DNA of 64,000 nucleotides from an uncultured Gammaproteobacteria bacterium (GTDB lineage Bacteria; Patescibacteriota; Patescibacteriia; UBA9934). A program made the position numbers and the translations under genes. The DNA is taken from assembly GCA_964344415.1 (NCBI GenBank), contig CAYFMS010000002.1, positions 192,593 to 256,592 on the forward strand, written 5' to 3'. Under the pieces are notes generated by a model. It saw nothing but the letters and a program-made list of their open reading frames with translations, did no database searches and had not been told where the DNA came from. Positions 2,372-59,171 of the stretch are shown one piece after another; position 1 is the stretch's first letter, and the number at the start of each line of letters is the position of its first letter.

Positions 2372-3532
2372 TTGGTTCATTTTATGCCTGCAACAAAGAA
2401 AACAAGCACCAAAGTAGCAAAAAAAGAGCGCTATAAAAAATCAGCGCCACCCAAGGAGGAAAAATTGAATCGATTAATTGAACGCGGAATGACAAGAGGG
2501 TTCCTCACTGAAAATGAGGTTCTTTATGGATTCGGAGAGCTTGAAGATCATCTGACGGCACTCGAGGATTTTCTTGATCTTGTTGAGTTGAAGGGGCTCC
2601 ATTTTATTGAAATGAAGGAGGGGTTTCTTGGCACTTCAGGAACAAAGGAAGGTATTTATGAAAAAATTCGGCAAAAGCATGAACCTGGAAAGGTAGATTT
2701 TTCAGAGCTCACGCATGATTCTATTCAAATGTATTTGCGTGAAATCGGTAAAATCCCTCTTCTTTCTGCCGAGGAAGAGATTGCGCTAGCGAAACGAAAA
2801 GAAAGAAATGATAAAGAGGCAGAGCAGCGACTTATTGAAGCAAATTTACGTCTTGTTGTTTCTATTGCAAAGAAATTCGTTGGAAAAACATTGACGCTTC
2901 TTGATTTGATTCAAGAGGGGAATGTTGGATTATTCCGAGCGGTAAAGAAATTTGAATATCGTAAAGGGTATAAGTTTTCAACCTATGCGACATGGTGGAT
3001 TCGTCAAGCGATCACGCGTGCGCTTGCAGACCAATCGCGAACCATTCGTATTCCCGTTCACATGGTTGAAACGATTAATAAATTCAAGAAAATTGAACGT
3101 CGCCTGATTCAGGATTTGGGTCGTGAGCCTCTTGCGGAAGAAATGGCGGCTGAAATGGACTTGCCGATTGAAAAAGTGCGTCATATTAAGAAAATTTCTC
3201 AAGAAACAGTTTCCCTCACTGCTTCGGTTGGTGATGATGATGAGGATTCAAAGCTCGAAGACTTTATCGAGGATACAAAGACAATTTCACCATCAAAACA
3301 GGCTGCACGCGAGCTTTTGAAGGACTATGTTGGCGATGCAATGAAGGATTTGACGCCACGTGAACAAAAGATTCTAGAAATGAGGTTTGGACTCACGGAC
3401 GGCGTCTCACATACTTTGGAAGAAGTTGGACGAGAATTTGATGTAACGCGTGAACGTATTCGACAAATCGAGGCGAAGGCGCTTGAGAAGATTCAACAGA
3501 AGGAAATCATCCACAAATTGCGTGATTATTAA
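2372..3532 (+). CDS. rpoD: RNA polymerase primary sigma factor (sigma-70 family)
   Basis: Region 2 motifs ([40 protein letters not shown]), region 3 and a region 4 HTH ([24 protein letters not shown]); 386 aa. Confidence 0.9.
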
Positions 3533-3696
3533 TAAAAAAAGTCCGCCTACGTCGAGAGGAACGATGACATAGACGGAGATTGCTCGGCGGCGAGCGGCGA
3601 TAGCTTCAAAGAGGATTGGCTGGGAAGCTACCAGCTGAGCTCAAGCTCACCGAGCGCAAGAATATTGCCAAAATATTAATGCATTGTCAATAGAGT

Positions 3697-3936
3697 ATGG
3701 GTAAAAACAAAAAAGTCATTTCAAAAGTTCATGAAAAAGCCATTGGATACATACTTGCTGCATTTGGTTTAGTAGCCGGTCTTGCATGGAATGAAGCCAT
3801 CAAAGAGGCAATTCAAGTGTTGTACCCGCTTGACCAAGACTCACTCACAGCAAAATTCATCTATGCCGGCATCATGACCGTGATTGTTGTGATTGTGTCT
3901 GTTGTATTGTTGCGTGGGAGTGGGGAGAAGAAATAA
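3697..3936 (+). CDS. Small membrane protein (79 aa), hypothetical
   Basis: ORF with two predicted hydrophobic helices (ILAAFGLVAGLAW; IMTVIVVIVSVVLL); no recognisable family. Confidence 0.4.
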   Translation: MGKNKKVISKVHEKAIGYILAAFGLVAGLAWNEAIKEAIQVLYPLDQDSLTAKFIYAGIMTVIVVIVSVVLLRGSGEKK

Positions 3937-3960
3937 TTATCTTATTCGGGAATTCATAAA

Positions 3961-3990
3961 AATAAGCCCTCAGGGGCTTATTTTGTATTT
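3961..3990. terminator. Bidirectional intrinsic terminator between convergent genes (small membrane protein + / clpB -)
   Basis: Hairpin TAAGCCC-TCA-GGGCTTA (3963-3980) flanked by an A-run upstream and TTTTGTATTT downstream. Confidence 0.55.
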
Positions 3991-6608
3991 ATCACGACAT
4001 TGTCATTTTCCATGTCGACGATGATTTTGGCTTCTTCGGGGACTTCGCCGGAAATGATTTTCATGGCGAGGGGATCCATAACCTGATTCTGAATCACGCG
4101 TTTGAGTGGCCTTGCGCCATATTTTGGATCAAATCCTTTCTTGGCGAGGTATTTCTTTGCAGCTGCTCGGACAGTTAATTTCATTCCGCGTTGTTTTTCG
4201 AGTCTCGCAGCAACTTCTTCAATCTGAAGCTGTACAATATCAGCGATATTTTCAGGTGTTAATGAGTGGAAGAAAATAACATCATCAACGCGATTCAAAA
4301 ATTCTGGACGGAAATGATCGCGCAATTGCTTCACAACATGTTCTTTCGTGGCATTCTCAACCGTATCCGTTTCATCTTCAAAACCAATACTTCCATTTTT
4401 ATCCGAATTCAGGATGATATCAGACCCAATATTTGATGTCATGATAATGATGGTATTCTTGAAATTCACTTTTCGGCCTTTTGAATCAGTGATATGTCCA
4501 TCGTCAAGAATTTGCAGGAGAAGATTGAAAATGTCCGGATGCGCTTTCTCGATTTCATCAAATAGTACGACAGAGTAGGGGCGTCGACGGATTTTTTCTG
4601 TAAGTTGACCCGCTTCGTCATAACCAACATAGCCCGGAGGAGACCCAATCATTTTGCTGACAGAATGTTTCTCCATAAATTCGGACATATCGACGCGGAT
4701 AAGCGCTTCTTCGTCGTCAAACATAAAGGTAGCCAGCTCTTTTGCAAGTTCGGTTTTTCCAACCCCGGTCGGACCAAGGAAAATGAATGATCCGATTGGT
4801 CGCTTTTCTTCTGAAATACCAGCTCGAGAACGCCTTAAGGCATTGCTAACAGCCGTAATAGCCTCTTCCTGACCGATGATATGCTTCTTAAGGTCAAGCT
4901 CCATATGGGAGAGTTTTTCCATTTCACTACGAAGCATTTTTGAAACTGGTATATTCGTCCAACGCGATACAATTCCTGCAATCTCTTCTTCGGAAATCTC
5001 TTCTTTCAATAGGCCGCGCTCTTGCTGGAATTTACGAAGCTCAATCTGAGCATCTTTTAGCTCTTCCTGTTTCTGCGGAATTCGTCCATATCGAATTTCA
5101 GCAACTTTTTGTAGGTCGCCGCGACGCTCTTCTATATCTGATTCTGATGTTAATTTATCGATTTCGTCTTTCAGGATTTGAATCTTTTTGATGAGCTCTT
5201 TTTCATTTTTCCATCTCAACTCCAAATCTCCAGATTGTTCTTTTAGATCGGCAATCTGTTTATCGATTTCTTTCAATCGTGTTTTACCTTTCTTGGTTTT
5301 TTCCTGAAGAAGTGATTGTCTTTCAATTTCAAGACGCATTTCTTCACGCTTCAATCGGTCAAGCTCTTCTGGCATAGAATCGATTTGCATTCGAAGTGCA
5401 GCTGCAGCTTCGTCGACAAGATCAATGGCCTTATCCGGTAGATTTCGGTCGGTAATGTATCGATTCGAAAGCTCAACTGCTGAAATGATGGCATCGTCGG
5501 AAATACGAACACCATGATGAATTTCATATTTCTCTTTAATCCCGCGAAGAATGGCAATAGCATCTTCGCTTGAAGGCTGGGCGACCATAACGGGCTGGAA
5601 TCGTCGTTCAAGGGCCGCATCTTTTTCAATATATTTCTGATATTCATTGAGCGTTGTAGCACCAACAACACGCATTTCACCGCGGGCTAGGGCAGGCTTG
5701 AGTAGATTTGATGCATCCATTGGCGAATCATCACCTTTACCGGCTCCCACAAGTGTATGAAGCTCATCAATAAAGAGAATGACTTGTCCATCTGTACTTT
5801 CAATTTCACGAATCACGGCCTTCAATCTTTCCTCAAATTCTCCACGGAATTTTGTTCCGGCAATAAGAGATCCTAAATCGAGTGACATAATGTCTTTGCC
5901 GCGAAGCATTTCCGGGACATCATCATTTGCAATACGTTGCGCGAGTCCCTCGGCAATGGCCGTTTTACCAACGCCAGCTTCACCTACTAAGACGGGGTTG
6001 TTTTTTGTTCTGCGCACTAAGATTTGCATGATACGTCGAATTTCTTCATCGCGACCGATGATTGGGTCTAGTTTTCCGTCCCTAGCTCGCTTTGTGAGAT
6101 TGATGGCATATTTCTCAAGAGCTTGAAATTTAGCTTCAGGATTCGCCGAATCGACTTTATGACTACCACGAACATCTTTCAATGTTTTCAAAACGGTTTC
6201 TTCATTCACACCGTATACAGAAAGGAGCTTTCCAACACTGCGATCTTCAAGAAGTGCCAAGAGCAAATGTTCCGTTGAAATATATTCATCACCAAATTTC
6301 TTTGCTTTTGCGCCAGAACCTTGCAAGACTTTTGCGAGGGCAGGGGTAAGCAGAACCTGGCCAATTCCACCTGTTTCAAAAGAATTGACTCGGGGTAATT
6401 GCCGTAAAAAATGATCGGCATCCTTTTTAAGGCCAGAAATATTAATATTGAGTTTTCTAAAAATAGTTAAAACAATGCCATCTTCTTGGGTAAGAAGCGC
6501 AATAAGTAAATGTAATGGTTCAATCCCTTGCTGCCCATTATCATTCGCAATAAATTGCGATGTTTGAATGGCCTCTTGAGATTTGCTTGTAAAATTGTTT
6601 GGAATCAT
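3978..6608 (-). CDS. clpB: ATP-dependent chaperone ClpB (two AAA+ modules with coiled-coil middle domain)
   Basis: 876 aa with an N-terminal Clp-N domain, Walker A GEAGVGKT (NBD1) and GPTGVGKT (NBD2), a long coiled-coil M-domain between them and sensor motifs. Confidence 0.93.
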
Positions 6609-46047: not shown

Positions 46048-47274
46048 CTATGCTGACATCTCAATCAACATATTCCACGCATCTCTAGGCTCAATGTCCT
46101 CTTCAAGTGCCATGTTATTTACAAGCTCTCCAAATTGATTCAATGCATTCACTGCTTCAAGCGATACCAGATCCGCGTCAATTTTATATTCTTTTACCCA
46201 AGCTTGAATTTCCTCTTCATATTTTTTCTTATAGTAAATCACATCGACATTTTGTATATGTACTTCTTTACCTAACAGCACGCCTTCCCCACCCCAATCA
46301 AGAATCTCTTCTCCTTCTATGGACAGACCTGCAATTGTTGCCTTTTGTTTTGCTTCATTTATACCAAAACTAACCTGATACTCATCAAACCAATGCAATA
46401 CCTGATAGCCGTCATGCGGATTACCACGGCTCGCATAGACATTCCCAAGCTTCTTGTTCACATGTTTCTCTCTTATAACTTCTCCCGTTTGAATTGTAAG
46501 ATTTCTTCTCGTTAGTTCACTACTTGAGAGTAAGCATTGTTGCTCACCAATCCCTGCAAGTGCCGCTGATCCTGTTGTATGACTGTAATCTGGTGCTCTA
46601 TACCCACGATCAATTAAATTCACAATTTCATTCACCACACCTTGCTCTATAAACGTAAATTTTTCTATGAGAATATTGCGTTCAGGCATCAATACCCAAT
46701 CACCATCTGGGTCATGGGATTGTAGTTGACCCATATAAGGATTATCTACGTTACGCCCTGTCGTTCTACCAGAAATAATACGAGAGTCCTGTACAAAACG
46801 TTCATGATAAAATTGAATATATTGAGATATAGCTGCAATTTGTTTTGAAGGCAATTCTCGACAATACGCATTTTTAAAAGCTTCGAAAGATGAAAAATTT
46901 GATAATAATTCCGGAGCCTTCTCTGACTCAAATTGGGATGCCAGATAGAGTTGATACATCAATTCGACAGGTTCAATGTTCTCCACATCTACACCATAAA
47001 ATTGTTCTGTTGCATCGAATAATTCCTGCAGTTTTGTAACAAAATGTGACTCAAGCTGCTCAAGATTCACACTCTCGCGTTCAAGTAATTCATCAAGTGC
47101 AAGGTTAGGAAGTGCCTTGATTTCCGGAATGCGTTGATTTCGTAATTCCATGTTTTCACGAATCGATATATATGCCTCAGGAAGCATGTCTACTTGTTCC
47201 ACTTGATACTCCAAACTCTTCTCCGCTACTTCGACAGATGGTTGCATCTTTTCTTTAAAAGGTTCTCTTTTCAT
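46048..47274 (-). CDS. Hypothetical protein (408 aa), encoded immediately downstream of MutS-HNH, unknown function
   Basis: No recognisable motifs; mixed alpha/beta; a 56-nt gap to the upstream MutS-HNH gene suggests co-transcription. Confidence 0.45.
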   Translation of the reverse strand: MKREPFKEKMQPSVEVAEKSLEYQVEQVDMLPEAYISIRENMELRNQRIPEIKALPNLALDELLERESVNLEQLESHFVTKLQELFDATEQFYGVDVENIEPVELMYQLYLASQFESEKAPELLSNFSSFEAFKNAYCRELPSKQIAAISQYIQFYHERFVQDSRIISGRTTGRNVDNPYMGQLQSHDPDGDWVLMPERNILIEKFTFIEQGVVNEIVNLIDRGYRAPDYSHTTGSAALAGIGEQQCLLSSSELTRRNLTIQTGEVIREKHVNKKLGNVYASRGNPHDGYQVLHWFDEYQVSFGINEAKQKATIAGLSIEGEEILDWGGEGVLLGKEVHIQNVDVIYYKKKYEEEIQAWVKEYKIDADLVSLEAVNALNQFGELVNNMALEEDIEPRDAWNMLIEMSA

Positions 47275-47330
47275 ATGATGTATATATTATCATGAACAAA
47301 TGTTGGGTGACGACAAATACCTCGTACTAT

Positions 47331-50321
47331 TTAAGCATCAACATCGAGCTCTAGGCCCGCGCTCGTCATTTTAAAACCTTTAATATTAACCTCTCCGGCA
47401 TGTACTTTTTTATGGCAAGCCTTGCATAAAGGTACAAGATTGTATTTATGATCCTTGTGAAAATGCTTAATATGACCATGCTCATTGGCATTTTTTTGGG
47501 GGGCAATATGATGGATATCCGATATTATTCCACTACAAAGGGTACAACTTGTGGCATACAAATCGCTATTATAGGTATTAATCTGCTTGTTCGTTAACAA
47601 TGTTAAATCATCTTCTTCTTGAGCAATTTGCTGACGGATTTTGGCAGCTAAAGCGAGGAATTTCTTGTCCATATGCAAAGATTCCGCAAACTCCAAACCA
47701 TAGACACTGCTACCACTCCCGGCTTGTAATGTACGATCAAAAATCAATTTATCCGCTTGTTCATCGTAATGCACATGTAAATGCACACTCACCACTTGAG
47801 GTAGAGATTTCAACAGATCAATGTTATGCAGTTGATGTAGATGGGTGGTAAACATGAACAAAGATCCGATTTCCGAAAGACGCTGTATTGTCGCGGTTAC
47901 AATAGCTAGAGCGGATAGTGTTTCTGTACCTCGACTGATTTCATCACCTAATATGAGACTTTGAGCCGTTGATCGATTAAAAATATTCTTCATTTCCATC
48001 ATTTCCACCGCAAAAGAAGATAGTCCTTTTTCAAAGTTATCCCTTGCAATAATGCGAGTGAAGATTTCGTGGAAAAGAGTGAATCTCATTTGTTTGGCTG
48101 GAACATAAAAACCGCTCTGAGCCAAAATGACACAAATACCCAAGCTTTTCATGAGCGAAGACTTACCGCTCGAGTTAATTCCATATAATAAAACTCCACG
48201 CGTATCTTCATCCGTCATCTGCGCCATGGTGCAAGAAGCAATTGACGCTTCCTGCAATGACTTGTCGCCCATCACTACGTCATTTGGAACATAAATCCCA
48301 TTTTCTTCACGAGCTTCCACCAGTGGATGTCTAACCTCTAATAATTCTAAATACGACGTTTGCTCATGGCTCGTAATTATTTGCGGGCGAACTAAATTAT
48401 GCAGCAAAGAAGATTTGATATTCGAAAGGGCTACATCAATCTTTCCAATCGTCGTGATGAGCGTATTCATCAACTCAGAATATTGTGTATCGAGTCGCTC
48501 TAATTCAGTATGGAAAAAATTACGGACTAATGCAGAGATCTTTTTATTCAAGAGCGTAATTTGTTCAGAAATATCACCAATAATTTTTGCTGTGATTTTA
48601 ACATTGCCCGTTTGAATCTTTACCGTGAAATCGTTCAGTGCATACACCGTGCCATCAATCGAAACAAAGCTATCAGATAACATTTGTTCAATTAAAAAGT
48701 ACCTGCTTTTTGTGATTGAAATATGATGTCCTTCCTTTTCAAGATGCTTAATCACGACATAATCTCGTTCAGGTTTGCCGGTTTGTTGTTCAATCAAGTG
48801 GACAAATTCAGTCCTAATTGTTTCCAATTTCTCCTGAAGTTCATTCTTTTGCTTGATAAGACTATCGATCTCAGCATTAAATCCAGCTTGAAAAAAACTT
48901 TGACTAATTTCACCTTGTGAGTACTTGCTGGTTTCATCCAAATTGAAAATTGCTTCCAAATCAAGAATAGCTTTTTCGAGTAGTGGCTGCTGCTCGACAA
49001 GTTCCGGTAGAATCGACGAACCGTCAATACTGGCCAAATGCATTAAGATGCTTTTACTCGCAATCAAAGAATCATAGAGAAAATTGATTTCAAAAGGATG
49101 CAGGCGACCAAGCTGAATACGACGTTTTAAGCGATCAATATCATAAATATGTTTCAGTTCCGCATCGATTTCTGCATAGATAAAAATTAGCGCATCGGAA
49201 AGATCATAACGAGCTTCAAGCTCCGTTTGGTCAATGATTGGATTCATGAGCCGTTCCCTGAATAGGCGGCGACCAAGGCTGGTACGAGTATTATCGAAAA
49301 AACTTAATACGGTCTGTTCATTTGGGTTAGATGAAATAATATTGAGTTGCTCGAGTGGATTATTGCCCAAATATAGGAAGTTTTTGTCATTAATATGCTG
49401 TGGTTCGATAATATTTTTTACCACTTCCCTGTCATGCTCAATAATAAATTCAAGCAAAATTGCCAAAGCTTCCGCTGCCAAAGGTTTTTTCTCTAGGTTT
49501 AAATACTCAATCGACGACAAAAACGATTTAATTTCATAGCAATGTTTAAATAATTCATTCTGATAGCTAATAGATAAACGTTTATTGTCAGTATGAACAT
49601 TCAGACTCTCCGATAGCTCCAGATATTGCTGAACAGTTTCTGGAACAAGATCCTTACCTCCACATGTTAGGAGAACTTCATTTGGTTCATGTGATTTAAG
49701 TAAAGAAAAAAGCTGGTCTAATGCATACGTGGAGTCCTCCTGAGTGCTGTGGATTTCAAAAACTGAAGTTCTACCAGTGGTAACGTCAATTGCTGCATAG
49801 CCAACCGAGTAATTGTCCTTATGCTTCTCAACAATTAAAGAAGTGGTGAAATTGTCATCATTATTGAGAGTATATTCAAAGTTAACACCGGGAGATAAAA
49901 TATTGTCCAAGTAACGTGTTACATTTGGTGGTGCGCCTTTTTGCTTGATAATGACAATCGTGTATTTATTTTCGCGAATCAGTTTTTGAACATAGCGATC
50001 GAATGTGGCCGTAGGAAAACCAGCCATAAGTGGATTTTTGACATTGTTTTCCTGAATGTTTTTATTCTTTCGCGTTAATTGAATATTCAAAATTTCAGCA
50101 ATTTCTTTTGGTTTACCAATTTGCTTCGTCGCATTATCAACTCCGTAAATTTCAAAAAATGACCCGATTTCCATCAGCACAACTGTGTCAGTTCCATACT
50201 TTGCTTCGAACAGCTCTTGTAGCTGTAAATAGATGGCAATCAACGATTGATTCGTGTCATCGAGTAACTCCTGAACACGTGCTTGCATACCCATAATGCT
50301 CTGCATTTTATCAGCTCTCAC
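47331..50321 (-). CDS. MutS-family protein with C-terminal HNH endonuclease domain (MutS7-like architecture)
   Basis: N-terminal mismatch-binding-like domain I (VVLMEIGSFFEIYGVDNA). MutS ATPase domain V (LLYGINSSGKSSLMKSLG...ILGDEISRGTETLSALAI...FTTHLHQL). C-terminal HNH with CTLCSG...HHIAP...HG...N...LCKACHKKVH. 996 aa. Confidence 0.8.
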   Translation of the reverse strand: MRADKMQSIMGMQARVQELLDDTNQSLIAIYLQLQELFEAKYGTDTVVLMEIGSFFEIYGVDNATKQIGKPKEIAEILNIQLTRKNKNIQENNVKNPLMAGFPTATFDRYVQKLIRENKYTIVIIKQKGAPPNVTRYLDNILSPGVNFEYTLNNDDNFTTSLIVEKHKDNYSVGYAAIDVTTGRTSVFEIHSTQEDSTYALDQLFSLLKSHEPNEVLLTCGGKDLVPETVQQYLELSESLNVHTDNKRLSISYQNELFKHCYEIKSFLSSIEYLNLEKKPLAAEALAILLEFIIEHDREVVKNIIEPQHINDKNFLYLGNNPLEQLNIISSNPNEQTVLSFFDNTRTSLGRRLFRERLMNPIIDQTELEARYDLSDALIFIYAEIDAELKHIYDIDRLKRRIQLGRLHPFEINFLYDSLIASKSILMHLASIDGSSILPELVEQQPLLEKAILDLEAIFNLDETSKYSQGEISQSFFQAGFNAEIDSLIKQKNELQEKLETIRTEFVHLIEQQTGKPERDYVVIKHLEKEGHHISITKSRYFLIEQMLSDSFVSIDGTVYALNDFTVKIQTGNVKITAKIIGDISEQITLLNKKISALVRNFFHTELERLDTQYSELMNTLITTIGKIDVALSNIKSSLLHNLVRPQIITSHEQTSYLELLEVRHPLVEAREENGIYVPNDVVMGDKSLQEASIASCTMAQMTDEDTRGVLLYGINSSGKSSLMKSLGICVILAQSGFYVPAKQMRFTLFHEIFTRIIARDNFEKGLSSFAVEMMEMKNIFNRSTAQSLILGDEISRGTETLSALAIVTATIQRLSEIGSLFMFTTHLHQLHNIDLLKSLPQVVSVHLHVHYDEQADKLIFDRTLQAGSGSSVYGLEFAESLHMDKKFLALAAKIRQQIAQEEDDLTLLTNKQINTYNSDLYATSCTLCSGIISDIHHIAPQKNANEHGHIKHFHKDHKYNLVPLCKACHKKVHAGEVNIKGFKMTSAGLELDVDA

Positions 50322-50376
50322 AATAAAATCTAGTAAATAGTAAACATAAAAACCAACCTTACGGTTGATTCTTTGC

Positions 50377-50542
50377 TGGCTCTGGGGGTGATATATAGCC
50401 TCGCTCTATACAAACCTTCGGTTTGACCGCTCGGCAGGATCCCACCCCAGCATCTGTTCCATGAATACCTAGAACATCTGCACAGCCTGACGGCTGTTAA
50501 GCCAAAAGAAAACAACCCTGACGGGTTGCATTCTTTTGGCTC
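50377..50542. repeat. 166-bp direct repeat DR1; begins with a 14-nt copy (tggctctgggggtg) of the tRNA-Asn 3' terminus
   Basis: 3 mismatches in 166 bp versus 56100-56265. Internally it holds a nested hairpin gccaaaagaa...(aaccc tgac gggtt)...ttcttttggc. Confidence 0.85.
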
Positions 50543-50590
50543 CCCGTGTTACATGATTACCGAACTGGTGGATGTGTATCAGATGGTGCA
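50522..50590. repeat. Degenerate tRNA-3'-half-like remnant R1 (ttggctccc...gattaccgaactggtgg)
   Basis: About 70% similar to 52212-52280. It resembles the tRNA-Asn acceptor/T-loop segment (tggctc...ggattcgaaccc) on the same strand. Confidence 0.4.
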
Positions 50591-50880
50591 AAAAAGTATG
50601 AACCGGATTAATGGTTGATCTTTTGTGTCGAATGTAAGCGTGTAAATGATGTCAGAACATTTAAGAACTATAGGGGGTGACCCCCATCCCATGGCCTGGA
50701 TATAACTTATTGTTACGCTCACCGGTTAAAATACAACAATCAACAACCTGAACCCGCTGTTATTTGCGATAGGTCAGGCAAATTATAGTGATCCTTTTTA
50801 TTCTGTATATATTAAAAACCTCCGTAGCTCAGTTGGAGCAATGGAGGTTACGACCCTGTCGTCGGCAGGATCAGATGAGT

Positions 50881-52071
50881 TTACGCAGATTTGCGCCTAC
50901 GGGCATCGAAAATGGCGTCGATCACCGCATCTGTCTTTGGACGGCGGTGTGAGTAAATCTCGTCAGCCATCTCTGGGACCTTGTTTGCTAGGCGCTGAAG
51001 ATCGTCTTCTTTCAAAGTGAAACGTTCGATCAGGCACCGAACAGCTTCTTCCATTCGGACCTGTGTGCGTATGCATAGCCACAGGGCGCGTTCGCTTGCG
51101 ATGTTCAGATCTATGAGACTTGCTGCTTGTTTACGGTATTCAAGACTGCGTCCAAAGTCGAGAATTTCAGCAAGACAATCCGGATCCGTGCAGTTACGCC
51201 GAAGCAACTCTTCGCTAGCAATGTCGCTAAATCCGCTTAACACGGTAGTAGACAAGACCACGTCACTTGGATCAAGAGAGAGAAAGGTCTGCCACAGCAT
51301 TTCATCGAGCTCTCGTACTTTACGAAACCACTTTGCAAAAACGACAGGGTCATCGCAACCGTTGAAGAGCTTCTGTTTGGCGTCTTCACGGAGCTCTTCG
51401 CTCATATTACCGATCCAAAGAAGTTGATCTTCGCTGAAGTTGTGGTCACGCAGAAACCGACGCGCTCGATCCAGTAGCTCCGGAACCCTTGCGATATCCT
51501 TTAGCTCGTACATCCCGATCCCCCTGACTTCTAGTATCTGCCAGGCCTGTTCCCTGAATTCTGGACAGTGTATCGCCACACGAGTCAGGTGCGTGAGGTC
51601 TACTACATCAAGCTTGAGCTGTTTCCATGCACGTCCACGCAGGTCTGTAAAATGTCTCATGATCTGCGTGACTGCCCAGTTACAGCGAAGTCGACGCGGA
51701 TCGGCCCTGCCGAGCAACCAATTCGTGAAACGTTCCCACAACGTAAGCTCGAGATCCTCGAGGTAGTCGAGAACCGCTTCGGCAATGGATCGCGTGCTCG
51801 GCAGATCGTTGTCAATGGAAATCGCTAGATCGGTGCCGTTCATATCCGCCGCCATCAGTTGCGCCGCGTGTTGACGGAACAGCGAGCATCCTCGCACCAC
51901 ATCTCTCAGCGTATGACAGTTGATACCTTGAATCAAGGTTAATCGCCAGGCTTCCCGACAAATGTGTTCAGGAACATCGTCCCGAACGAAGTAGCTGTAG
52001 TGCCAGTTCTTGGCTCCAGGTTCGCTGTTGAGTAGCGCAGTCCAGAGTTCCTCTGCTGTTTGTTCGTCCAT
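50881..52071 (-). CDS. Hypothetical protein (396 aa), all-alpha, Trp/Leu/Arg-rich; compositionally foreign (GC-rich) gene
   Basis: The ORF is visibly much GC-richer than its flanks (which resemble the rest of the window), and several spurious antisense ORFs co-occur in it. No recognisable catalytic motifs. Confidence 0.5.
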   Translation of the reverse strand: MDEQTAEELWTALLNSEPGAKNWHYSYFVRDDVPEHICREAWRLTLIQGINCHTLRDVVRGCSLFRQHAAQLMAADMNGTDLAISIDNDLPSTRSIAEAVLDYLEDLELTLWERFTNWLLGRADPRRLRCNWAVTQIMRHFTDLRGRAWKQLKLDVVDLTHLTRVAIHCPEFREQAWQILEVRGIGMYELKDIARVPELLDRARRFLRDHNFSEDQLLWIGNMSEELREDAKQKLFNGCDDPVVFAKWFRKVRELDEMLWQTFLSLDPSDVVLSTTVLSGFSDIASEELLRRNCTDPDCLAEILDFGRSLEYRKQAASLIDLNIASERALWLCIRTQVRMEEAVRCLIERFTLKEDDLQRLANKVPEMADEIYSHRRPKTDAVIDAIFDARRRKSA

Positions 52072-52211
52072 TCGGCCTCCAAAAGAGCATTGTAAAATTT
52101 TTAATTCGTGTGAGTATTTTGAACGCTCAACGAATAAATTATAGCAAGAATATACTTATGTCAATAAAAGGTCAGGCTTAGCACAGCCAAATAAAAATCC
52201 TCCGCACAAGA

Positions 52212-52280
52212 CGGTGAATTTTTATTGGCTCCCAACATTACGTGTTTACCGAACTGGTGAGTATCTACCAAGCGGTGAAG
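52212..52280. repeat. Degenerate tRNA-3'-half-like remnant R2
   Basis: ttggctcccaacattacgtgtttaccgaactggtgagtat, similar to R1; same orientation. Confidence 0.4.
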
Positions 52281-52314
52281 TTGAGCATGCCACGCATTCA
52301 AAGCTGTATGTTCG

Positions 52315-52965
52315 CTATTTCGCAATAAGATGTTTATCAAACCCTTGATCAACAAGATGCTGGTAGGCCTCTAATACGTTGTCTGGTATTTCTTGCGAGA
52401 TCTGGAACCCCTTATCAGGGTATTCGATGATTCTTTGAAGATCGCCAACCATAATGTTTACAAAAGCATCTGTATCAATCGATCCATCATCATAGTCTTC
52501 AAAGTTCAGCTCTGGAGATGCAAGAATCAATTCTTTCTCAGGCCAATGCACTTTTCCAGTTGCATACGCACGGCGCTCCATATACGGCTTCGTGACAATA
52601 ATCGCACTTGAAAATTCGATGCCTTTTTCTGTGAGCAGCTCACCACTCAGTTTGAAGTTGTCGCCAGTATTTCGCGCTTCTTTCTCAAGAATGATGCTGT
52701 CATCCGGAACTCCCGCCTTTATCATCACATCAGCAAACTCTTCCGCCTCAGTTCGTTTCCATCCAGTATCAAGTAGGTCGCCAATGTGAGCCATGCCACC
52801 AGAAACGACTACTATGGGTGCTAAACCTTTTTTGAACAAATCAGCAGCATACTCTGCTACACGGATATCGTGACTACCTAAAACAAGGATAATGTCAGCC
52901 TTCTCAAGCAACTGATTGAGTTGATGATATTTGTAGAGCAATTTCGCGCTTTCCGCTATATCCAT
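52315..52965 (-). CDS. DUF218/YdcF-family protein
   Basis: ADIILVLGSHDIRVAEYAADLFKKGLAPIVVVSGG is the canonical DUF218 core. 216 aa; last gene of a 5-gene minus-strand operon. Confidence 0.65.
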   Translation of the reverse strand: MDIAESAKLLYKYHQLNQLLEKADIILVLGSHDIRVAEYAADLFKKGLAPIVVVSGGMAHIGDLLDTGWKRTEAEEFADVMIKAGVPDDSIILEKEARNTGDNFKLSGELLTEKGIEFSSAIIVTKPYMERRAYATGKVHWPEKELILASPELNFEDYDDGSIDTDAFVNIMVGDLQRIIEYPDKGFQISQEIPDNVLEAYQHLVDQGFDKHLIAK

Positions 52966-52966
52966 A

Positions 52967-53320
52967 CTAGAAATCTTCTTTGAAGTCTGCTTGAATCGAG
53001 AGTTCCTCTCCCTTTTTTATATCTCTCAAAGCAACATCAGCATCTAGCTCGTAGTCCACGTATACATTCGGGTCTTCGTATCGATTTACGTGTCGTTCTG
53101 GGTCTGGGTAGTAATAAATGATTCCATATCTTTTGTGTGTAAAGTGTTTCTCAGACGCAGGAAGATTCTTGAACTCTTCTTCCGTGAGAGTCTTCAAATT
53201 GTACTGAATCACCACTTCACCCTTCTTGAAATCTCGAAACGCAAATACACCAAGCCCATCATTGAATTGACCAATGCCAGACTCCCTAATTTCAACATCT
53301 CCGAAAATTTGTTTATTCAT
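52967..53320 (-). CDS. SET-domain protein (small bacterial SET, putative lysine methyltransferase)
   Basis: GLGVFAFRDFKKGEVV (SET-N), HVNRYEDPNV (NHSCxPN-like) and EELSIQADFKE (post-SET-like ELTFDY). The start is set at internal MNKQIFGD, which avoids overlap with the upstream gene. Confidence 0.55.
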   Translation of the reverse strand: MNKQIFGDVEIRESGIGQFNDGLGVFAFRDFKKGEVVIQYNLKTLTEEEFKNLPASEKHFTHKRYGIIYYYPDPERHVNRYEDPNVYVDYELDADVALRDIKKGEELSIQADFKEDF

Positions 53321-53336
53321 AGTACTGGTTAGTATA

Positions 53337-54287
53337 TCAACTACTTGAGAGAGAAAAATCCTTGTACATAAGGTCACATAAACAATCATGAAGCCTATTC
53401 ATATTCTCAACATCCTCTCTGGTGAATGTATGGTTAGGAGAAAGTGATGCACCGTGAACAAGGCCCTTGTTATTTCTTAGATGATTCCATGCATGTACAT
53501 GGCTTAAATAATATCCAAATCCTTTTCCAAGACTCTTTAAAAACTCCTGCACCCTATCCTTTGTTACACCTTTGTTATTTATATTTCCGGGCGTCAACTT
53601 TCTTTTTAAAGCTTTTTTCTGTGAGTCAGACAAACCCAACTCCTCAATCTGTAAGACCGTATTTTCTATAATGCTATTCAACTTACTCCAATTAGCACTT
53701 TCTTTTCTTTTATCGACAATGGAGGTTTTTACACTTTCTGTTTTAGATAAATGCTCTATTAGAGCATACTCACTCATAAATCTAACATCAGCAATTGCAA
53801 GGGTATTGATTTGAAGCATTGGGAGTAGCATTTTTCTAAAAAAATGACTCTCTTTTAGTCGGGCTAGTCCGTGCTCAATGGTCGCTACAGGATGAGCGAA
53901 TAGATGTTTTCTATTTCTATTGATTTGACAACCTCCTCCTAGGTTGAAATTTTTTGGAATAGCAGAGAATGGAAAATCATTGTTATGAAATAAAATGGTC
54001 ACATTATCAGCCAGTAAATATGATAGTACGAGTGAGATTCTCCATAGTAAATCCTTATCTTCATCCTCTAATGTTACAGTCAGAACTAATGTGTTGTACC
54101 GAACAAGCTGCAGCTCAAGCTCTCCCTTAAAGATATTAAAGGTGAACTGCGTTCCGGTGTTAAGCACTTCTTTCTGCTTGCTTGGAATACTACCTAACTC
54201 ATATTTCATTTTCAGCAACTTACCAGTCTCCTCAAGATAAATCTGTCGCTCTCTGTGTAGATTGAACAAGTTGCGCACCTCGGGCAT
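53337..54287 (-). CDS. Hypothetical protein (316 aa) with C-terminal Rx6H (HEPN-like) motif; candidate Abi/HEPN-type protein
   Basis: C-terminal SHVHAWNHLRNNKGLVHGASL contains R-x6-H, as in HEPN nuclease motifs. No other family recognised. Third gene of the operon. Confidence 0.35.
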   Translation of the reverse strand: MPEVRNLFNLHRERQIYLEETGKLLKMKYELGSIPSKQKEVLNTGTQFTFNIFKGELELQLVRYNTLVLTVTLEDEDKDLLWRISLVLSYLLADNVTILFHNNDFPFSAIPKNFNLGGGCQINRNRKHLFAHPVATIEHGLARLKESHFFRKMLLPMLQINTLAIADVRFMSEYALIEHLSKTESVKTSIVDKRKESANWSKLNSIIENTVLQIEELGLSDSQKKALKRKLTPGNINNKGVTKDRVQEFLKSLGKGFGYYLSHVHAWNHLRNNKGLVHGASLSPNHTFTREDVENMNRLHDCLCDLMYKDFSLSSS

Positions 54288-54302
54288 ACAAGTTTACAAG
54301 CA

Positions 54303-55196
54303 CTATACTGCTTGATGGTTTGATGAATACTTATCTGTCAGCAAAGTAACAGCACCTTCATTGAAGAAGAAATACAAGTTTCCGTTTGAACGTGTAGAGA
54401 ATACCTTTCCGAGGTACTCCTGTTTATTATCAATCGTGTTGTAGCGTAAACCTCCGGCGTATGAAGAATATTGAGAAGCAATATCCGTACCCTGTTTCTC
54501 TGATTCTGATGCTTTTGACAGCACAATAGCACCAACCTCTCCCGTTAAATCAAAAAGAGATTTAGGAAATCCAGATTTATGGCCGTGATGAGGTGCCACC
54601 AGAATGTCTAAGCCATTTTTCATTGTTCTAATAAAATCCTTGTCATTGGCTGCAAGCCAGTCCCATCCAGCCTGCTCAAGGTCACCACCAAATAGAATAC
54701 GAACGTTTCCATACCTCACGTACCTCAAGATGCTAGAGTTATTTTTCTGTTTATCATTGAGCTCCGAATTGCTCTTAACCTGATGCATTGGGATGAGGAA
54801 GACTCTGTTTTCGTGAAATCCCCAGCCGTCGAACTTAATTGAGGCACCTCGATATCGTAAATCGATATGGTTTTTATATTCGTCATGAATATTTTCACCA
54901 ACATCAAATGATTCATGTCGTCTACGGTGAACGAGGTAAGGCGACAATTTTTCAGAAACCTTTTTCGCATTCTTTACATGGTCATCATCTGGATGGGTAA
55001 CGTGCAGTAGCGTTAGGTCGTACCCATTATAACTTTTCATTTTCAAAAAACTGTCCTTCAAGTGAAGCACTCGGTCTACGGGGCAATCCTTTTCCGCGTT
55101 ACTTCCACAATCAATCATCATGCTATATCCGTTTGGACAAACACATAGATTGCATGCAGCGTTATTTACATCAAAGACAACTAATTTTGCACTCAT
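54303..55196 (-). CDS. Standalone ComEC/Rec2-type metallo-beta-lactamase-fold nuclease domain protein
   Basis: Matches the ComEC C-terminal domain pattern: VFDVNNAACNLCV...MMIDCGS, LLHVTHPDDDHV (HxDxDH), ILFGGDLE and ILVAPHHGHKSG (PHHGS motif). The start is set at internal MSAKL, which gives an ATGA overlap with the upstream membrane-protein gene. Confidence 0.7.
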   Translation of the reverse strand: MSAKLVVFDVNNAACNLCVCPNGYSMMIDCGSNAEKDCPVDRVLHLKDSFLKMKSYNGYDLTLLHVTHPDDDHVKNAKKVSEKLSPYLVHRRRHESFDVGENIHDEYKNHIDLRYRGASIKFDGWGFHENRVFLIPMHQVKSNSELNDKQKNNSSILRYVRYGNVRILFGGDLEQAGWDWLAANDKDFIRTMKNGLDILVAPHHGHKSGFPKSLFDLTGEVGAIVLSKASESEKQGTDIASQYSSYAGGLRYNTIDNKQEYLGKVFSTRSNGNLYFFFNEGAVTLLTDKYSSNHQAV

Positions 55197-55858
55197 ATCT
55201 TTCTCTTTAAATTCAACTGAATAATTTTGTGTACCAATCCTCTTGCAACTCCACGGGCTCTCCAGAGAAAAATTAGTGCTATAGCGAAAGCAATGACGCT
55301 TAGTTCTCGATAATCCTGAGTAAATAAAAGCAAGCCAACAAGCAAGAAGACGAGGAAGATTACGCGACAAAAAAGATACGAAGCGTTCGACTGAACTATT
55401 TCTGAAGTGCTGGAAACCTTGCTATATAGCCTCCAAAATATGCTCTGTGACAAATCGTCAGCCTGCTTTGTATCATCGCCCTTAAAGATGAGAGGAATAT
55501 CTGAATACTCTCGGTCAATCAAAGCTCTTTCGTTTGTATTAAGGTCAAGCAACTTCAACAACTCTTCACGTTTGTAATCACTCTTGAGTACAGGGTTCTG
55601 CTTATATAAAAAGACCTTGGAAGGCCTTCTCATGCGAAAGAAAATATCAACAAAAAATTCAAGGGAGTGGGCAAGTGTTTGTAAAACTTCGCCGGCAATA
55701 AAAGCGGCACAAAAGAATAGGAAAGTATAAAGAAAGTCTAAGTCCTGATTAAAGTACACGGAAAACGTTTCGCTATATAGTGCCAGTGCCACTCCTAGCA
55801 GGAGACCGCCCGGCATAACTCTAATCATTAAGTCTTCAAAACTGAATTTGTCCAACAT
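55193..55858 (-). CDS. Hypothetical membrane protein (221 aa, 2+2 TM), first gene of the island operon
   Basis: Hydrophobic helices at both ends with a charged central region; its stop overlaps the MBL-gene start (ATGA). Confidence 0.4.
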   Translation of the reverse strand: MLDKFSFEDLMIRVMPGGLLLGVALALYSETFSVYFNQDLDFLYTFLFFCAAFIAGEVLQTLAHSLEFFVDIFFRMRRPSKVFLYKQNPVLKSDYKREELLKLLDLNTNERALIDREYSDIPLIFKGDDTKQADDLSQSIFWRLYSKVSSTSEIVQSNASYLFCRVIFLVFLLVGLLLFTQDYRELSVIAFAIALIFLWRARGVARGLVHKIIQLNLKRKI

Positions 55859-55924
55859 ATTTAATCTAATTTTGGTAATACTGCTTGTACGACTCCTTGA
55901 ATGCTATTAAAGGGGTCAGGTCTC

Positions 55925-55950
55925 ACGTCGTTCGTGAACGACGTGAGGTC
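55925..55950. other. Perfect 12-bp-stem hairpin (ctcacgtcgttc gtga acgacgtgag) upstream of the island operon
   Basis: Inverted repeat seen directly in sequence. It sits in the operon's 5' flank, so it is more likely an operator or structured leader than a terminator. Confidence 0.4.
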
Positions 55951-56099
55951 GTTTATTGTCGCTTTTTTTGTAAAATAAAGTCATGGCACGACCTCCTAGA
56001 ATAGAATATAACGGAGCTCTCTATCATGCAATGTCGCGTGGACTGTCCTACCTCCTTCAAAGTAAAATAAAAACAATCCCTGATGGGATTATTTTTATT

Positions 56100-56265
56100 T
56101 GGCTCTGGGGGTGATATATAGCCTCGCTCTATACAAACCTTTGGTTTGACCGCTCGGCAGGATCCCACCCCAGCATCTGTTCCATAAATACCCAGAACAT
56201 CTGCACAGCCTGACGGCTGTTAAGCCAAAAGAAAACAACCCTGACGGGTTGCATTCTTTTGGCTC
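56100..56265. repeat. 166-bp direct repeat DR2, immediately abutting (6-nt overlap) the tRNA-Asn 3' end
   Basis: Near-identical to DR1. The layout is ...tggctctgggggtg-DR body-ttttggctc | tgggggtgggattcgaaccc (tRNA). Confidence 0.85.
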
Positions 56266-56616
56266 TGGGGGTGGGATTCGAACCCACGACCAATTGGTTA
56301 CACGTAATCCTATAGTTTCCTATAAGCATGGACTATATCATCATCCTTCTCAATGAGTGAGGATGCGAGGCGCTTCGAGTCTTGCGACCCTACTCCATAA
56401 AGGATAGTCTCTGAACCGGCCTTCGCCAAGGCTTCGTCCGACAGGTCTTCCTGCTCGGTCCTTGATGAAGGATTGGCTGCTGATTGCCATATTCTTTCGA
56501 ATGAAGGTTTCCAGCAATTCACCTCGTTTTCATTCCACTGTTTCCAGTGGAAGCTGCGTTAGGCGCTCGATTGAGCTGTGCCACAGCCAACTGCTCTGCC
56601 ACTGAGCTACCCCAGA
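56260..56616 (-). tRNA. tRNA-Asn(GUU) interrupted by a group I intron in the anticodon loop (exons 56584-56616 and 56260-56300)
   Basis: 5' exon TCTGGGGTAGCTCAGTGGCAGAGCAGTTGGCTGT. 3' exon TAACCAATTGGTCGTGGGTTCGAATCCCACCCCCAGAGCCA. The spliced product has a canonical cloverleaf with anticodon loop CUGUUAA and a T-arm GTGGG-TTCGAAT-CCCAC, with CCA encoded. It is close to bacterial tRNA-Asn sequences. Confidence 0.8.
56301..56582 (-). ncRNA. Group I self-splicing intron (282 nt) inserted between anticodon positions 35 and 36 of tRNA-Asn
   Basis: Conserved group I core elements are present. P-like GAAUUGCUGGAAA, Q-like AAUCAGCAGCC, R GUUCAGAGACUA, S AUAUAGUCC. A P2 hairpin has a GAAA tetraloop (CCACUG-GAAA-CAGUGG). 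A P9 hairpin has a GAAA tetraloop (CUUAUAG-GAAA-CUAUAGG). The intron ends in a G (omegaG). The 5' exon ends in U with a candidate IGS GCAGCU. Confidence 0.75.
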
Positions 56617-56858
56617 TTATTATCTCGTATTCGTTTTAGAAACTCTTTTCCGTAGCCCGATTTTAGGTATCTTTCCCTTGCTCGCGCCGAGGGTCTATCA
56701 GTTACCTGTTCGGTGTACAGCAGAGTCCATGGTCGGTAGGCTTTCGTAGAAGAAACCCTACCAGCGTTGTGCTCCGATATTCTACGTTCGATATTTCCTG
56801 AAAAGCCCACATAAATTCTACCATCATGTTGACTTGCAATTGCGTAAACGTGATACAT
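56607..56858 (-). CDS. GIY-YIG nuclease-domain protein (UPF0213/YhbQ-like, 83 aa)
   Basis: YHVYAIASQHDGRIYVGFSGNIERRISEHNAG...KAYRPWTLLYTEQ...ARARERYLKS matches the GIY-YIG (GIY...YVG...R...H...E) YhbQ-type pattern. Its last 10 nt overlap the 5' end of tRNA-Asn. Confidence 0.7.
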   Translation of the reverse strand: MYHVYAIASQHDGRIYVGFSGNIERRISEHNAGRVSSTKAYRPWTLLYTEQVTDRPSARARERYLKSGYGKEFLKRIRDNNLG

Positions 56859-56894: not shown

Positions 56895-56914
56895 TGCCAC
56901 TGAGCTACCCCAGA
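56895..56914 (-). repeat. Duplicated 20-nt fragment of the tRNA-Asn 5' end (tgccactgagctaccccaga)
   Basis: Identical to 56597-56616 (tRNA positions 1-20). It lies 280 bp upstream of the real tRNA start, on the far side of the GIY-YIG ORF. Confidence 0.7.
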
Positions 56915-56994
56915 ATTTCAAATTGTGAACATTTTTCAAAAGAACGGTGACGAAATGGTATCATGCATTTTAGTAATCGTCAATAATTTATTCT

Positions 56995-57582: not shown

Positions 57583-58242
57583 ATGAATTCAAAGTTATTT
57601 TTAAAGATCCTCGTATGCACGGGGATCTTTTTAATCTCGACGCATATAATCGGTCAATGGATGTTCCTACATGCCGTCATTCCAGATTTCTGGTCAGATG
57701 TTATTTTGCGATTCAATGTAGATCACGAGGCCAGCATTCCAACTTGGTTTGCGCAAACAATACTTCTCATTCTTTCCGTTCTGGGATTCGGCCTGTCTGG
57801 TACTGATAAAAAACGGAAAGGATCTTGGATGCTATTTGGTGCATTATTTTTATACCTCAGCATCGACGAGGGGTCGGAAATACATGAATTAGCCATCGAG
57901 CCATTCCAGCATGCATTCGATATTTCAAGCGGCCCGCTTTTCTTTGCTTGGGTTATCCCTGCAATTGGATTACTCGCTCTACTCGCAATTATTTTCTGGA
58001 AATTTTTCTGGTCACTTCCAAAAAAGACAAGGTTATTACTTATACTATCAGCAGTACTCTTTCTCAGCGGAGCAATTATCATGGAAATGATTTCAGGGAA
58101 TTATTGGCAAGCGCATGATTTTCAATACGACTTTACCTATCGAATCATGAATGCTATCGAGGAAGGCTTCGAATTTTCTGGCGTTATTCTTGCCATTTAT
58201 GCCCTAATGAGCTATAAGGAGTCCTTAACATCATCAAAATGA
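57583..58242 (+). CDS. Hypothetical membrane protein (219 aa)
   Basis: About 6 TM helices; its stop overlaps the start of the downstream GTPase. Confidence 0.35.
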   Translation: MNSKLFLKILVCTGIFLISTHIIGQWMFLHAVIPDFWSDVILRFNVDHEASIPTWFAQTILLILSVLGFGLSGTDKKRKGSWMLFGALFLYLSIDEGSEIHELAIEPFQHAFDISSGPLFFAWVIPAIGLLALLAIIFWKFFWSLPKKTRLLLILSAVLFLSGAIIMEMISGNYWQAHDFQYDFTYRIMNAIEEGFEFSGVILAIYALMSYKESLTSSK

Positions 58243-59171
58243 AAAGGATACCTGTTACGGTTTTAACCGGATTTCTTGGCGCCGGAAAAACGACATTACT
58301 TAATCATATTCTGAATGCGAGCGATGAAAAAATCGCCGTTATTGTTAATGAATTTGGAGATATTTCGATCGATGACCGGCTTCTTTTGCGAAGTGATGAA
58401 GAAGTGATCGAGCTTGCGACAGGCTCTATTTGCTGCGCCGTAAAAAATGACGTTGTAAAGGTTCTTACACGACTGGCTGATAATAAAAATCAGAAATTTG
58501 ATCGTGTCGTCATTGAAACGACAGGACTGGCTAATCCTGCCCCACTTATTGAGGCATTTGAATCGAAACCAGGACTCCGACCATTCAATGTCGAGCATAT
58601 CGTGACGCTTACAGATAGCTATCATATTCTTGAACAAATCGACCGAACACCAGAGGCACGCGAGCAGATCGCATTAGCGGACACGGTTATTCTGAATAAA
58701 ATTGACCTCTGTCCGGATGTCGATGCTGTTCGTGACATTGTTTTACGCATTAATCCTCTTGCGAAAATTATTGAAACGAATCAAAGCAAGGTAGAATTAC
58801 AAGCTATTCTTTCAACTGCTGAGTTCCCAGAAATACGACATCATGCACATGACCATGATTCGCATCATCACGATTCGGAACTTCAGACATTCTCATTATC
58901 TGAATCAAGACCACTTAGCTTAGACAAAGTTTCTCATTGGATCGCCGAGCACATTATTCTCAATGGAGAAAATCTGCTCCGATACAAAGGCATTCTCAAC
59001 ATCGACGGAATGAATGAGCGCTTTGTATTTCAGGGACTGCATATGCATTTTTCGAATACAAAAGATCGACCTTGGCATGAAAATGAAGAGCGGATCAGTG
59101 AAGTTGTCATCATCGGGAAAAATCTAGACCAAAAAGAATTCGAGGACTCATTCAGAGAATTAGCCGCGTAA
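58239..59171 (+). CDS. COG0523-family G3E GTPase (CobW/YjiA/ZigA-like metallochaperone)
   Basis: P-loop VLTGFLGAGKTTLLNHIL, CxCC-like metal motif (GSICCAV) and a His-rich stretch HHAHDHDSHHHDSE typical of zinc-associated COG0523 members. Confidence 0.85.
   Translation: MKRIPVTVLTGFLGAGKTTLLNHILNASDEKIAVIVNEFGDISIDDRLLLRSDEEVIELATGSICCAVKNDVVKVLTRLADNKNQKFDRVVIETTGLANPAPLIEAFESKPGLRPFNVEHIVTLTDSYHILEQIDRTPEAREQIALADTVILNKIDLCPDVDAVRDIVLRINPLAKIIETNQSKVELQAILSTAEFPEIRHHAHDHDSHHHDSELQTFSLSESRPLSLDKVSHWIAEHIILNGENLLRYKGILNIDGMNERFVFQGLHMHFSNTKDRPWHENEERISEVVIIGKNLDQKEFEDSFRELAA

Follow-up and report, generated by a model that had tools for sequence, protein, structure and literature searches.

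The 64,000-nt stretch analysed here, referred to as the window, corresponds to positions 192,593 to 256,592 of contig CAYFMS010000002.1 (assembly GCA_964344415.1). It encodes a 996-aa protein in which a MutS body is fused to a C-terminal HNH nuclease domain, and this protein is almost certainly an intact member of the MutS7 family. Its gene (47331-50321, minus strand) is followed 56 nt downstream by a co-oriented gene for a 408-aa protein (46048-47274, minus strand); both open reading frames (ORFs) and their spacing are present as given in an initial annotation of this DNA. As a whole, the locus is best read as a MutS7 mismatch sensor with a tethered HNH nickase, inherited within its lineage and probably acting alone, next to an unrelated 408-aa gene and flanked by an integration hot spot. 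We assign this reading a probability of about 0.6.

The MutS7 ORF starts with a GTG codon at 50321 and has its stop codon at 47331-47333. The public gene call for an identical protein (P0001), encoded on a 768-kb metagenomic contig, is 987 aa long and begins nine codons later, which makes an ATG at 50306 or 50294 the probable true start. Other ORFs of the window encode DnaG, ClpB, GluRS, SerRS and a class II aminoacyl-tRNA synthetase (D/K/N type), as well as PBP2, an AddA-like helicase-nuclease, MetRS and PepA, and the window is an ordinary segment of a bacterial chromosome. The closest relatives of the MutS7 protein carry the labels Uhrbacteria, Magasanikbacteria, Kerfeldbacteria and Nomurabacteria. 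Because of these labels, the 768-kb contig and the housekeeping genes of the window, the host is identified as a small-genome bacterium of the Candidate Phyla Radiation (CPR/Patescibacteria), in agreement with the reduced genome that had been ascribed to it.

Domain architecture of the MutS7 protein

In the window protein, Pfam matches to MutS_I, MutS_II, MutS_III and MutS_V all exceed their gathering cut-offs, and an AlphaFold (AF2) model (predicted local distance difference test, pLDDT, 80.5) shows all five domains of MutS, joined through a disordered linker to an HNH domain with a beta-beta-alpha fold. All features described in this section lie on the minus strand. Domain I (aa 43-146; 49884-50195; Pfam E=8.9e-11) carries the mismatch-binding motif G53-S-F55-F-E57, of which F55 and E57 align to F36 and E38 of the E. 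coli protein and are invariant in 60 of 60 MutS7 sequences. Domain II (aa 159-304; 49410-49847) scores 32.7 bits at a cut-off of 25 and has an alpha/beta structure in the AF2 model. Domain III (aa 323-633; 48423-49355; E=2.4e-20) encloses a clamp insert, and its Pfam match extends over 311 residues for 190 profile positions. The insert itself has no Pfam match. It is predicted to form a beta-rich, domain IV-like clamp at aa ~515-578 (48588-48779), as the AF2 model places strands at residues 522-577 between two long domain III helices (483-514 and 579-641) and E. coli domain IV (444-503) aligns to residues 496-578 of the window protein.

The ABC ATPase domain V (aa 711-899; 47625-48191; MutS_V, E=2.4e-43) contains a Walker A motif (G714-INSSGKS721), a Walker B motif (D793-E794) and H827. 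Residues N716, K720, S721, S768, D793, E794 and H827 align to N616, K620, S621, S668, D693, E694 and H728 of the E. coli protein and do not vary among the 60 MutS7 sequences, with the exception of S721, which is serine in 58 and threonine in two of them. Domain V is connected to the HNH tail by a flexible linker (aa 900-924; 47550-47624), for which the AF2 model gives pLDDT values below 50 at residues 902-912. Within this linker, L909 (in LTLL) is shared by at least 90% of the sequences, and the LxLL element might, speculatively, be a candidate clamp-binding contact.

The HNH nuclease domain (aa 925-996; 47334-47549) comprises the motif residues C926-x2-C929, H937-H938, N961, C966-x2-C969-H970 and H974, followed by a beta-hairpin; in the AF2 model the beta-beta-alpha elements lie at residues 935-974 and precede the hairpin. 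The C, C, HH, N, C and H columns are invariant among the tails from CPR bacteria, Campylobacterota and giant viruses, and the second pair of zinc ligands is CxxC in CPR versus CxxH in Campylobacterota. Among 23 MutS-HNH tails searched with Pfam, HNH_2 is matched by 15, HNH by 10 and DUF968 by 18. In a PDB search, a profile of the tails also matches IscB and Cap5 at their HNH domains. Since the family tails match both the HNH models and these two domains, the identity of the tail is secure at the family level. No Smr domain is matched by Pfam in the window protein. More than 130 alignment columns, including all catalytic residues, are invariant among 35 sequences from two phyla. Judged from sequence conservation and the structural model, the protein appears to be fully competent, with both a mismatch-binding ATPase and a nuclease in working order. 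The architecture proposed in the initial annotation, MutS domains I to V plus a terminal HNH, is thereby borne out, with domains I, II, III and V supported by Pfam and the domain IV-like clamp predicted by the model.

Family assignment and inheritance

MutS7 has been defined by domains I, III and V together with a C-terminal HNH domain, and its clade unites the mitochondrial MutS of octocorals (mtMutS) with MutS proteins of giant viruses and epsilonproteobacteria (PMC3166940; PMC8438181; bioRxiv 10.1101/2024.07.17.603841). The subfamily goes back to Ogata et al. 2011 according to PMC3166940, where that work is cited. The window protein shows the same order of domains, I - III - V - HNH with HH..N..H, as the proteins of Mimivirus, Tetraselmis virus 1, octocoral mitochondria and Campylobacterota, and it shares with them the beta-hairpin that follows the HNH domain. 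It differs in having a Pfam-detected domain II and a predicted domain IV-like clamp, whereas published descriptions report that domains II and IV are missing or escape detection (PMC3166940; PMC8438181). This contrast is a difference in detection or retention and no ground for excluding the protein from the family.

Full-length relatives with 29-35% identity, HNH tail included, are encoded on 146 giant-virus contigs (E down to 2e-164), and the MutS7 proteins of Campylobacterota are 45-50% identical to the window protein over the full length. The best structural match with a named subfamily is 'MutS subfamily 7 [Tetraselmis virus 1]' (E=2e-62; template modelling (TM) scores 0.62/0.66), and the 'MutS subfamily 8' protein of the same virus is matched at E=3e-12. 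The nearest NCBIfam family is MutS1, the scores of which remain clearly under the equivalog cut-offs (NF003810, 364.6 vs 480; TIGR01070, 285.5 vs 641.7), and that of MutS2 falls far short (TIGR01069, 109.8 vs 400). MutS1 proteins of E. coli and Thermus (PDB 1e3m, 1ewq) have the same five-domain architecture, Phe-X-Glu motif and ATPase residues and provide the best PDB sequence matches (E ~1e-43), but are only ~23% identical to the window protein. They possess a C-terminal tetramerisation region and recruit MutL, whereas the window protein carries its own nuclease. MutS2 (PDB 7vuf, 7qv3) likewise joins a MutS-family ATPase to a C-terminal nuclease domain; in contrast to the window protein, with its domain I and terminal HNH, it has no domain I and ends in Smr, and the PDB matches to it (E ~1e-16) cover the ATPase region only. 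Plant-type MSH1 follows the same principle of a mismatch sensor with a tethered nuclease. Its nuclease is of the GIY-YIG rather than the HNH fold, and the published phylogeny sets it apart as a separate clade spread by giant viruses (bioRxiv 10.1101/2024.07.17.603841).

A neighbour-joining tree was calculated from 61 sequences and 935 columns, with E. coli MutS1 as the sole outgroup and octocoral sequences left out. All MutS-HNH proteins are separated from E. coli MutS1 with a bootstrap value of 100, and the giant-virus sequences form a group with the same value. The window protein groups with the CPR sequences (99), and these in turn with Campylobacterota (90). The tree implies a transfer between CPR and Campylobacterota that is likely ancient. 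Together with the family scores and the full-length alignment to giant-virus proteins, this placement agrees with the initial annotation, which had called the protein MutS7-like rather than MutS1 or MutS2 and had proposed a phylogeny as a check.

Within CPR, about 100 protein clusters are 50-89% identical to the MutS7 protein. Counted over all lineages, relatives are encoded in 582 species-level genomes. The 18 top-scoring loci outside Campylobacterota all appear to be from CPR, and 16 of them bear CPR labels. The remaining two (L010, L011) belong to records titled 'uncultured Gammaproteobacteria'; their MutS7 proteins are 55-56% identical to that of the window and fall inside the CPR clade, and these titles are probably wrong. 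MutS7 in CPR bacteria, including the Uhrbacteria/Magasanikbacteria-like group of the window host, is not mentioned in the searchable literature. Database records already label the CPR proteins as mismatch-repair proteins, and CPR is in effect a new host phylum for a known family.

The genomic neighborhood of MutS7 was compared across 80 species-level loci. No neighbouring gene family is common to CPR and Campylobacterota in these loci, none of them has a defence-island context, and the adjacent genes are unrelated and of the housekeeping type, among them TsaD, phosphoglucomutase, peptidase M20, GST and MCP. The composition of the window gene (GC 0.38; GC at third codon positions, GC3, 0.357) and its codon-usage distance of 0.288 are native to the window, as the housekeeping genes range from 0.20 to 0.32 and the two cannot be distinguished. 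No PADLOC defence model is matched at E<=1e-3 by the MutS7 or the 408-aa protein. No MutS or MutL is encoded by the ten largest window ORFs outside the MutS7 locus. Given the CPR clade, the native codon usage and the absence of PADLOC matches and common neighbours, MutS7 looks, on sequence grounds, like a stand-alone chromosomal gene inherited within a CPR sub-lineage. The initial annotation had considered a mobile or defence-related acquisition. This is largely refuted, because the protein falls among the vertically inherited MutS proteins of its own lineage, and the position of the gene outside the repeat-bracketed segment described below points the same way.

Two lineage-specific arrangements were observed around MutS7 in other genomes. 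In five Hydrogenimonas-like genomes (L018, positions 4343-6550, and four further Campylobacterota loci), a superfamily 1 (SF1) helicase of ~730 aa with AAA_11 and AAA_12 matches is located two genes downstream of MutS7 and is a possible companion in that lineage only. In the close relative L189, a CobW GTPase gene (3122-4081) follows MutS7 with a 4-nt overlap. The homologue of this gene in the window (58239-59171, plus strand) is found on the far side of the tRNA hot spot, which shows that gene order around MutS7 is fluid in the genus.

The 408-aa neighbour and the probable tRNA-Thr hot spot

The 408-aa gene (46048-47274, minus strand) starts with ATG, belongs to an uncharacterised family and lies outside the MutS7 unit, from which it is separated by the 56-nt spacer (47275-47330, minus strand). 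A single weak promoter-like match is located in this spacer at 47313-47286. The protein has no match in Pfam, NCBIfam, PADLOC or the PDB sequence profiles, in keeping with the initial description of a protein without recognisable domains. Word-index homologue searches with the single sequence and with a profile were almost empty, and the protein looked like an orphan. An exhaustive HMMER search, in turn, recovered at least 118 clusters of homologues (E<=1e-3), most of them 360-430 aa long.

The genomic distribution of this family is not linked to that of MutS7. By tblastn, the 408-aa gene is missing from all 80 species-level MutS7 loci and from all six close relatives whose MutS7 proteins are 80-89% identical to that of the window. 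In these six, the position downstream of MutS7 is occupied by GST, DUF1801, CobW, a gene on the opposite strand or an unrelated 423-aa ORF; the latter, an unannotated gene in the relative L190, is not a homologue of the 408-aa protein. Conversely, MutS7 is absent from all 22 loci that encode 408-aa homologues, where no neighbour is conserved and the surrounding genes are unrelated housekeeping genes. The suggestion that the 408-aa gene is a partner of MutS7 is thus rejected in both directions (0/80, 0/6 and 0/22), and the gene is an unrelated neighbour. No new two-component system is therefore to be inferred from the locus.

An AlphaFold model of the 408-aa protein, built with 44 family members (pLDDT 88.6; predicted TM score, pTM, 0.87), contains a C-terminal alpha/beta domain (aa ~165-408; 46051-46782, minus strand) with a candidate ADP-ribosyltransferase (ART)-like fold. 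The best eight PDB matches in Foldseek are all DarT, from three organisms, or yeast Tpt1, at weak E-values of 0.03-0.5 and low TM scores. The family conserves H232-x-[TS]-G-S236 (HxTGS in the window protein), Y280/Y290 and W295-F-[DN]-E298 (WFDE in the window protein), residues that could form an NAD+ site of the H-Y-E type. The HxTGS motif is paired by hhalign with YHGT of E. coli KptA (Tpt1), at a probability of only 16%, and a search of the viral fold database BFVD was uninformative. The protein differs from DarT and Tpt1 in an additional helical N-terminal domain of ~130 residues and in the lack of a DarG-like antitoxin gene next to it; sequence similarity to them is not significant and membership is not established at these scores. 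From the model, the odds for an ART-like fold are roughly even.

The initial annotation had placed MutS7 next to a tRNA-linked island. Default ARAGORN and Rfam searches find no tRNA within 12 kb of the gene. A tRNA-Thr(UGU) gene (56260-56616, minus strand) is nevertheless present ~6 kb upstream of MutS7, split in its anticodon loop by a 282-nt group I intron (56303-56584). The intron is matched by Rfam RF00028 at 56309-56592 with 83.9 bits, and ARAGORN calls tRNA-Thr(tgt) when introns are allowed for and also when given the spliced exon sequence. The splice site lies directly after U33, and G is the last base of the intron. Introns in tRNA genes are uncommon in bacteria. Directly upstream of this gene, an 83-aa ORF (56607-56858, minus strand) encodes a free-standing GIY-YIG nuclease (Pfam E=7.9e-17). 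It is flanked by a duplicate of the first ~20 nt of the tRNA (56597-56642 vs 56895-56940), an arrangement which suggests that a small mobile element has inserted next to the tRNA.

The 3'-terminal 14-mer of tRNA-Thr occurs in exact copies at 56260, at 56100-56113 and at 50377-50390, against a chance expectation of 0.1; the GTG start of MutS7 lies 56 nt beyond the end of the last copy. Two of these copies lie in a multi-hairpin repeat of ~206 nt. Copy A (50335-50542, minus strand) is located in the 559-nt gap upstream of MutS7, contains the 14-mer at 50377-50390 and ends in an 11-bp hairpin with a T-run, a terminator-like site; the RNA fold of the repeat has z=-8.1. Copy B (56061-56265, minus strand) starts at the 3' end of tRNA-Thr, contains the internal 14-mer at 56100-56113 and is 91.7% identical to copy A. 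Both copies close with the exact 14-mer, a hairpin and a T-run. The repeat has no Rfam match at E<=1, and ARAGORN finds no tRNA in it, save for inconsistent calls at a very lax threshold. It could be the scar of an attachment (att) site, a miniature mobile element or a small RNA. In the two closest relatives, a tRNA-Asn precedes MutS7 by 1.4 kb and 5.5 kb, and in the relative L162 a hairpin homologous to the first hairpin of the repeat begins at the 3' end of this tRNA (6547-6599).

The exact 14-mer copies bracket a variable segment of 5.7 kb with six ORFs (50391-56099, no strand assigned). No integrase was recognised among its called genes, no antitoxin-like gene is found near the MutS7 locus, and none of the six ORFs lies near MutS7 in the loci of relatives. 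The segment looks like a tRNA-associated integration hot spot, with MutS7 as a conserved flanking gene and not part of the cargo. The initial placement of MutS7 next to a tRNA-linked island is thus supported in part; MutS7 itself lies outside the bracketed segment. A 396-aa ORF (50881-52071, minus strand) with a GC content of 0.52 and a GC3 of 0.55, in a window of ~41% GC, is the sole compositionally foreign ORF of the segment. Searches against Pfam, NCBIfam and PADLOC gave no match for it, related loci do not contain it, and it is probably a recent foreign gene. Just 3' of it, at ~50836-50870, a hairpin with a T-run resembles on the plus strand the acceptor and D-arm of a tRNA (CCTCCGTAGCTCAGTTGGAGCAATGGAGG). 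No tool calls a tRNA there, and the element is a piece of a tRNA or else a terminator with a fortuitous likeness to one. Further members of the segment are an ORF with a metallo-beta-lactamase fold (54303-55370, minus strand), which matches the candidate defence family PDC-M48B at E=6e-22 and LmuA weakly, and an overlapping 221-aa ORF (55193-55858, minus strand) with a weak match to Csx27 (E=8e-6).

Proposed function and competing explanations

A mechanism for MutS7 can be proposed from the structure and function of MutS1 and from the conserved residues. A MutS7 dimer would scan the DNA, and Phe55 and Glu57 of domain I would recognise a mismatch or a small loop. ATP binding at the intact Walker A/B site would then bring about the clamp state, in which the tethered HNH domain could nick the DNA in cis, replacing the MutL, or the MutL and MutH, of canonical repair. 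In this manner, one polypeptide might start excision without MutL or MutH. Self-contained repair of this kind has already been proposed for octocoral mtMutS (PMC3166940). By analogy with MutS1, we regard this mechanism for the window protein as slightly better than an even bet.

A number of points weigh against the preferred reading. The mechanism is taken over from MutS1, because MutS7 activity has been demonstrated in no organism, and a 2021 preprint describes octocoral mtMutS as a protein of unknown function (10.1101/2021.09.08.459357). The targeting of an HNH nick to the nascent strand lacks an explanation. The tail of the window protein, when scored alone, gives a sub-threshold HNH match (PF01844, E=0.022; DUF968, E=0.0028). 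The tree was obtained with a simple method, with one MutS1 outgroup and without octocoral sequences. Because of this method and outgroup, the branching order within the MutS7 family is provisional; the monophyly of Campylobacterota is weak (bootstrap 38), so that the transfer between them and CPR may have run in either direction. As regards the 408-aa gene, no terminator-like site was found in the 56-nt spacer, and it may be co-transcribed with MutS7.

The main competing explanation holds that MutS7 is a surveillance nuclease for recombination or heteroduplexes, which would cut mismatched or branched intermediates, for example to limit homeologous recombination or incoming foreign DNA, instead of repairing replication errors. 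An anti-recombination role has long been ascribed to MutS2, and CPR bacteria are episymbionts that are exposed to foreign DNA. A sensor fused to a nuclease without an obvious signal for strand discrimination would suit such a task, and so would the patchy distribution of a family that has moved among CPR, Campylobacterota, giant viruses and an organelle (PMC3166940). The protein has, however, kept the Phe-X-Glu motif of domain I and the full MutS1-like architecture, unlike MutS2, and its 80 loci lack any defence-island context. The low mitochondrial substitution rates of octocorals with mtMutS also fit a role in fidelity (PMC8438181). On balance, surveillance of recombination appears unlikely, though it deserves more weight than the explanations that follow.

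That MutS7 and the 408-aa gene form a recently acquired two-gene mobile or defence module beside the tRNA island is very improbable. The two genes are co-oriented across a short gap without a terminator, the tRNA-bracketed segment abuts MutS7, and the 408-aa model resembles the fold of the DarT toxin; yet neither gene accompanies the other in any further locus compared, MutS7 belongs to a CPR-specific clade, has native codon usage and lies outside the repeat brackets, and neither a PADLOC match nor a nearby integrase or antitoxin-like gene accompanies the pair. Equally hard to credit is a cooperation in this genome alone, in which the 408-aa protein would be an active enzyme of the ART fold that assists MutS7, for example by marking DNA or a protein at lesions. 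The DarT and Tpt1 matches, the conserved H232, S236, Y290 and E298 and the co-oriented position next to MutS7 speak for it. Set against them are the weakness of the structural scores, the low hhalign probability, the uninformative viral search and the housekeeping contexts of a family that is linked to MutS7 nowhere else. The notion that the MutS7 gene is a decaying, non-functional relic has the least to recommend it and can almost be dismissed, in view of the uninterrupted 996-aa ORF, the native codon usage and the invariant columns, catalytic residues included, that are shared across two phyla. The preferred reading remains that of a lineage-inherited, stand-alone MutS7.

In most accounts, MutS7 figures as an oddity known from giant viruses, octocoral mitochondria and some epsilonproteobacteria. 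A conserved and evidently functional clade in CPR extends its natural range to a second bacterial phylum. A farther-reaching possibility, which we regard as tentative and rather doubtful, is that MutS7 is the only mismatch-repair machinery of a whole CPR branch (Magasanikbacteria/Uhrbacteria-like) and at the same time part of the reservoir for giant viruses and octocoral mitochondria. If this were true, a one-polypeptide system would replace MutS1, MutL and MutH in genomes of less than 1 Mb, and the CPR clade, sister to Campylobacterota, would belong to the bacterial source pool that supplied MutS7 to giant viruses and, through them, to octocoral mitochondria. The CPR proteins offer small, simple bacterial representatives for a first biochemistry of single-protein mismatch repair, and they bear on the question of how replication fidelity is maintained in ultra-reduced genomes.

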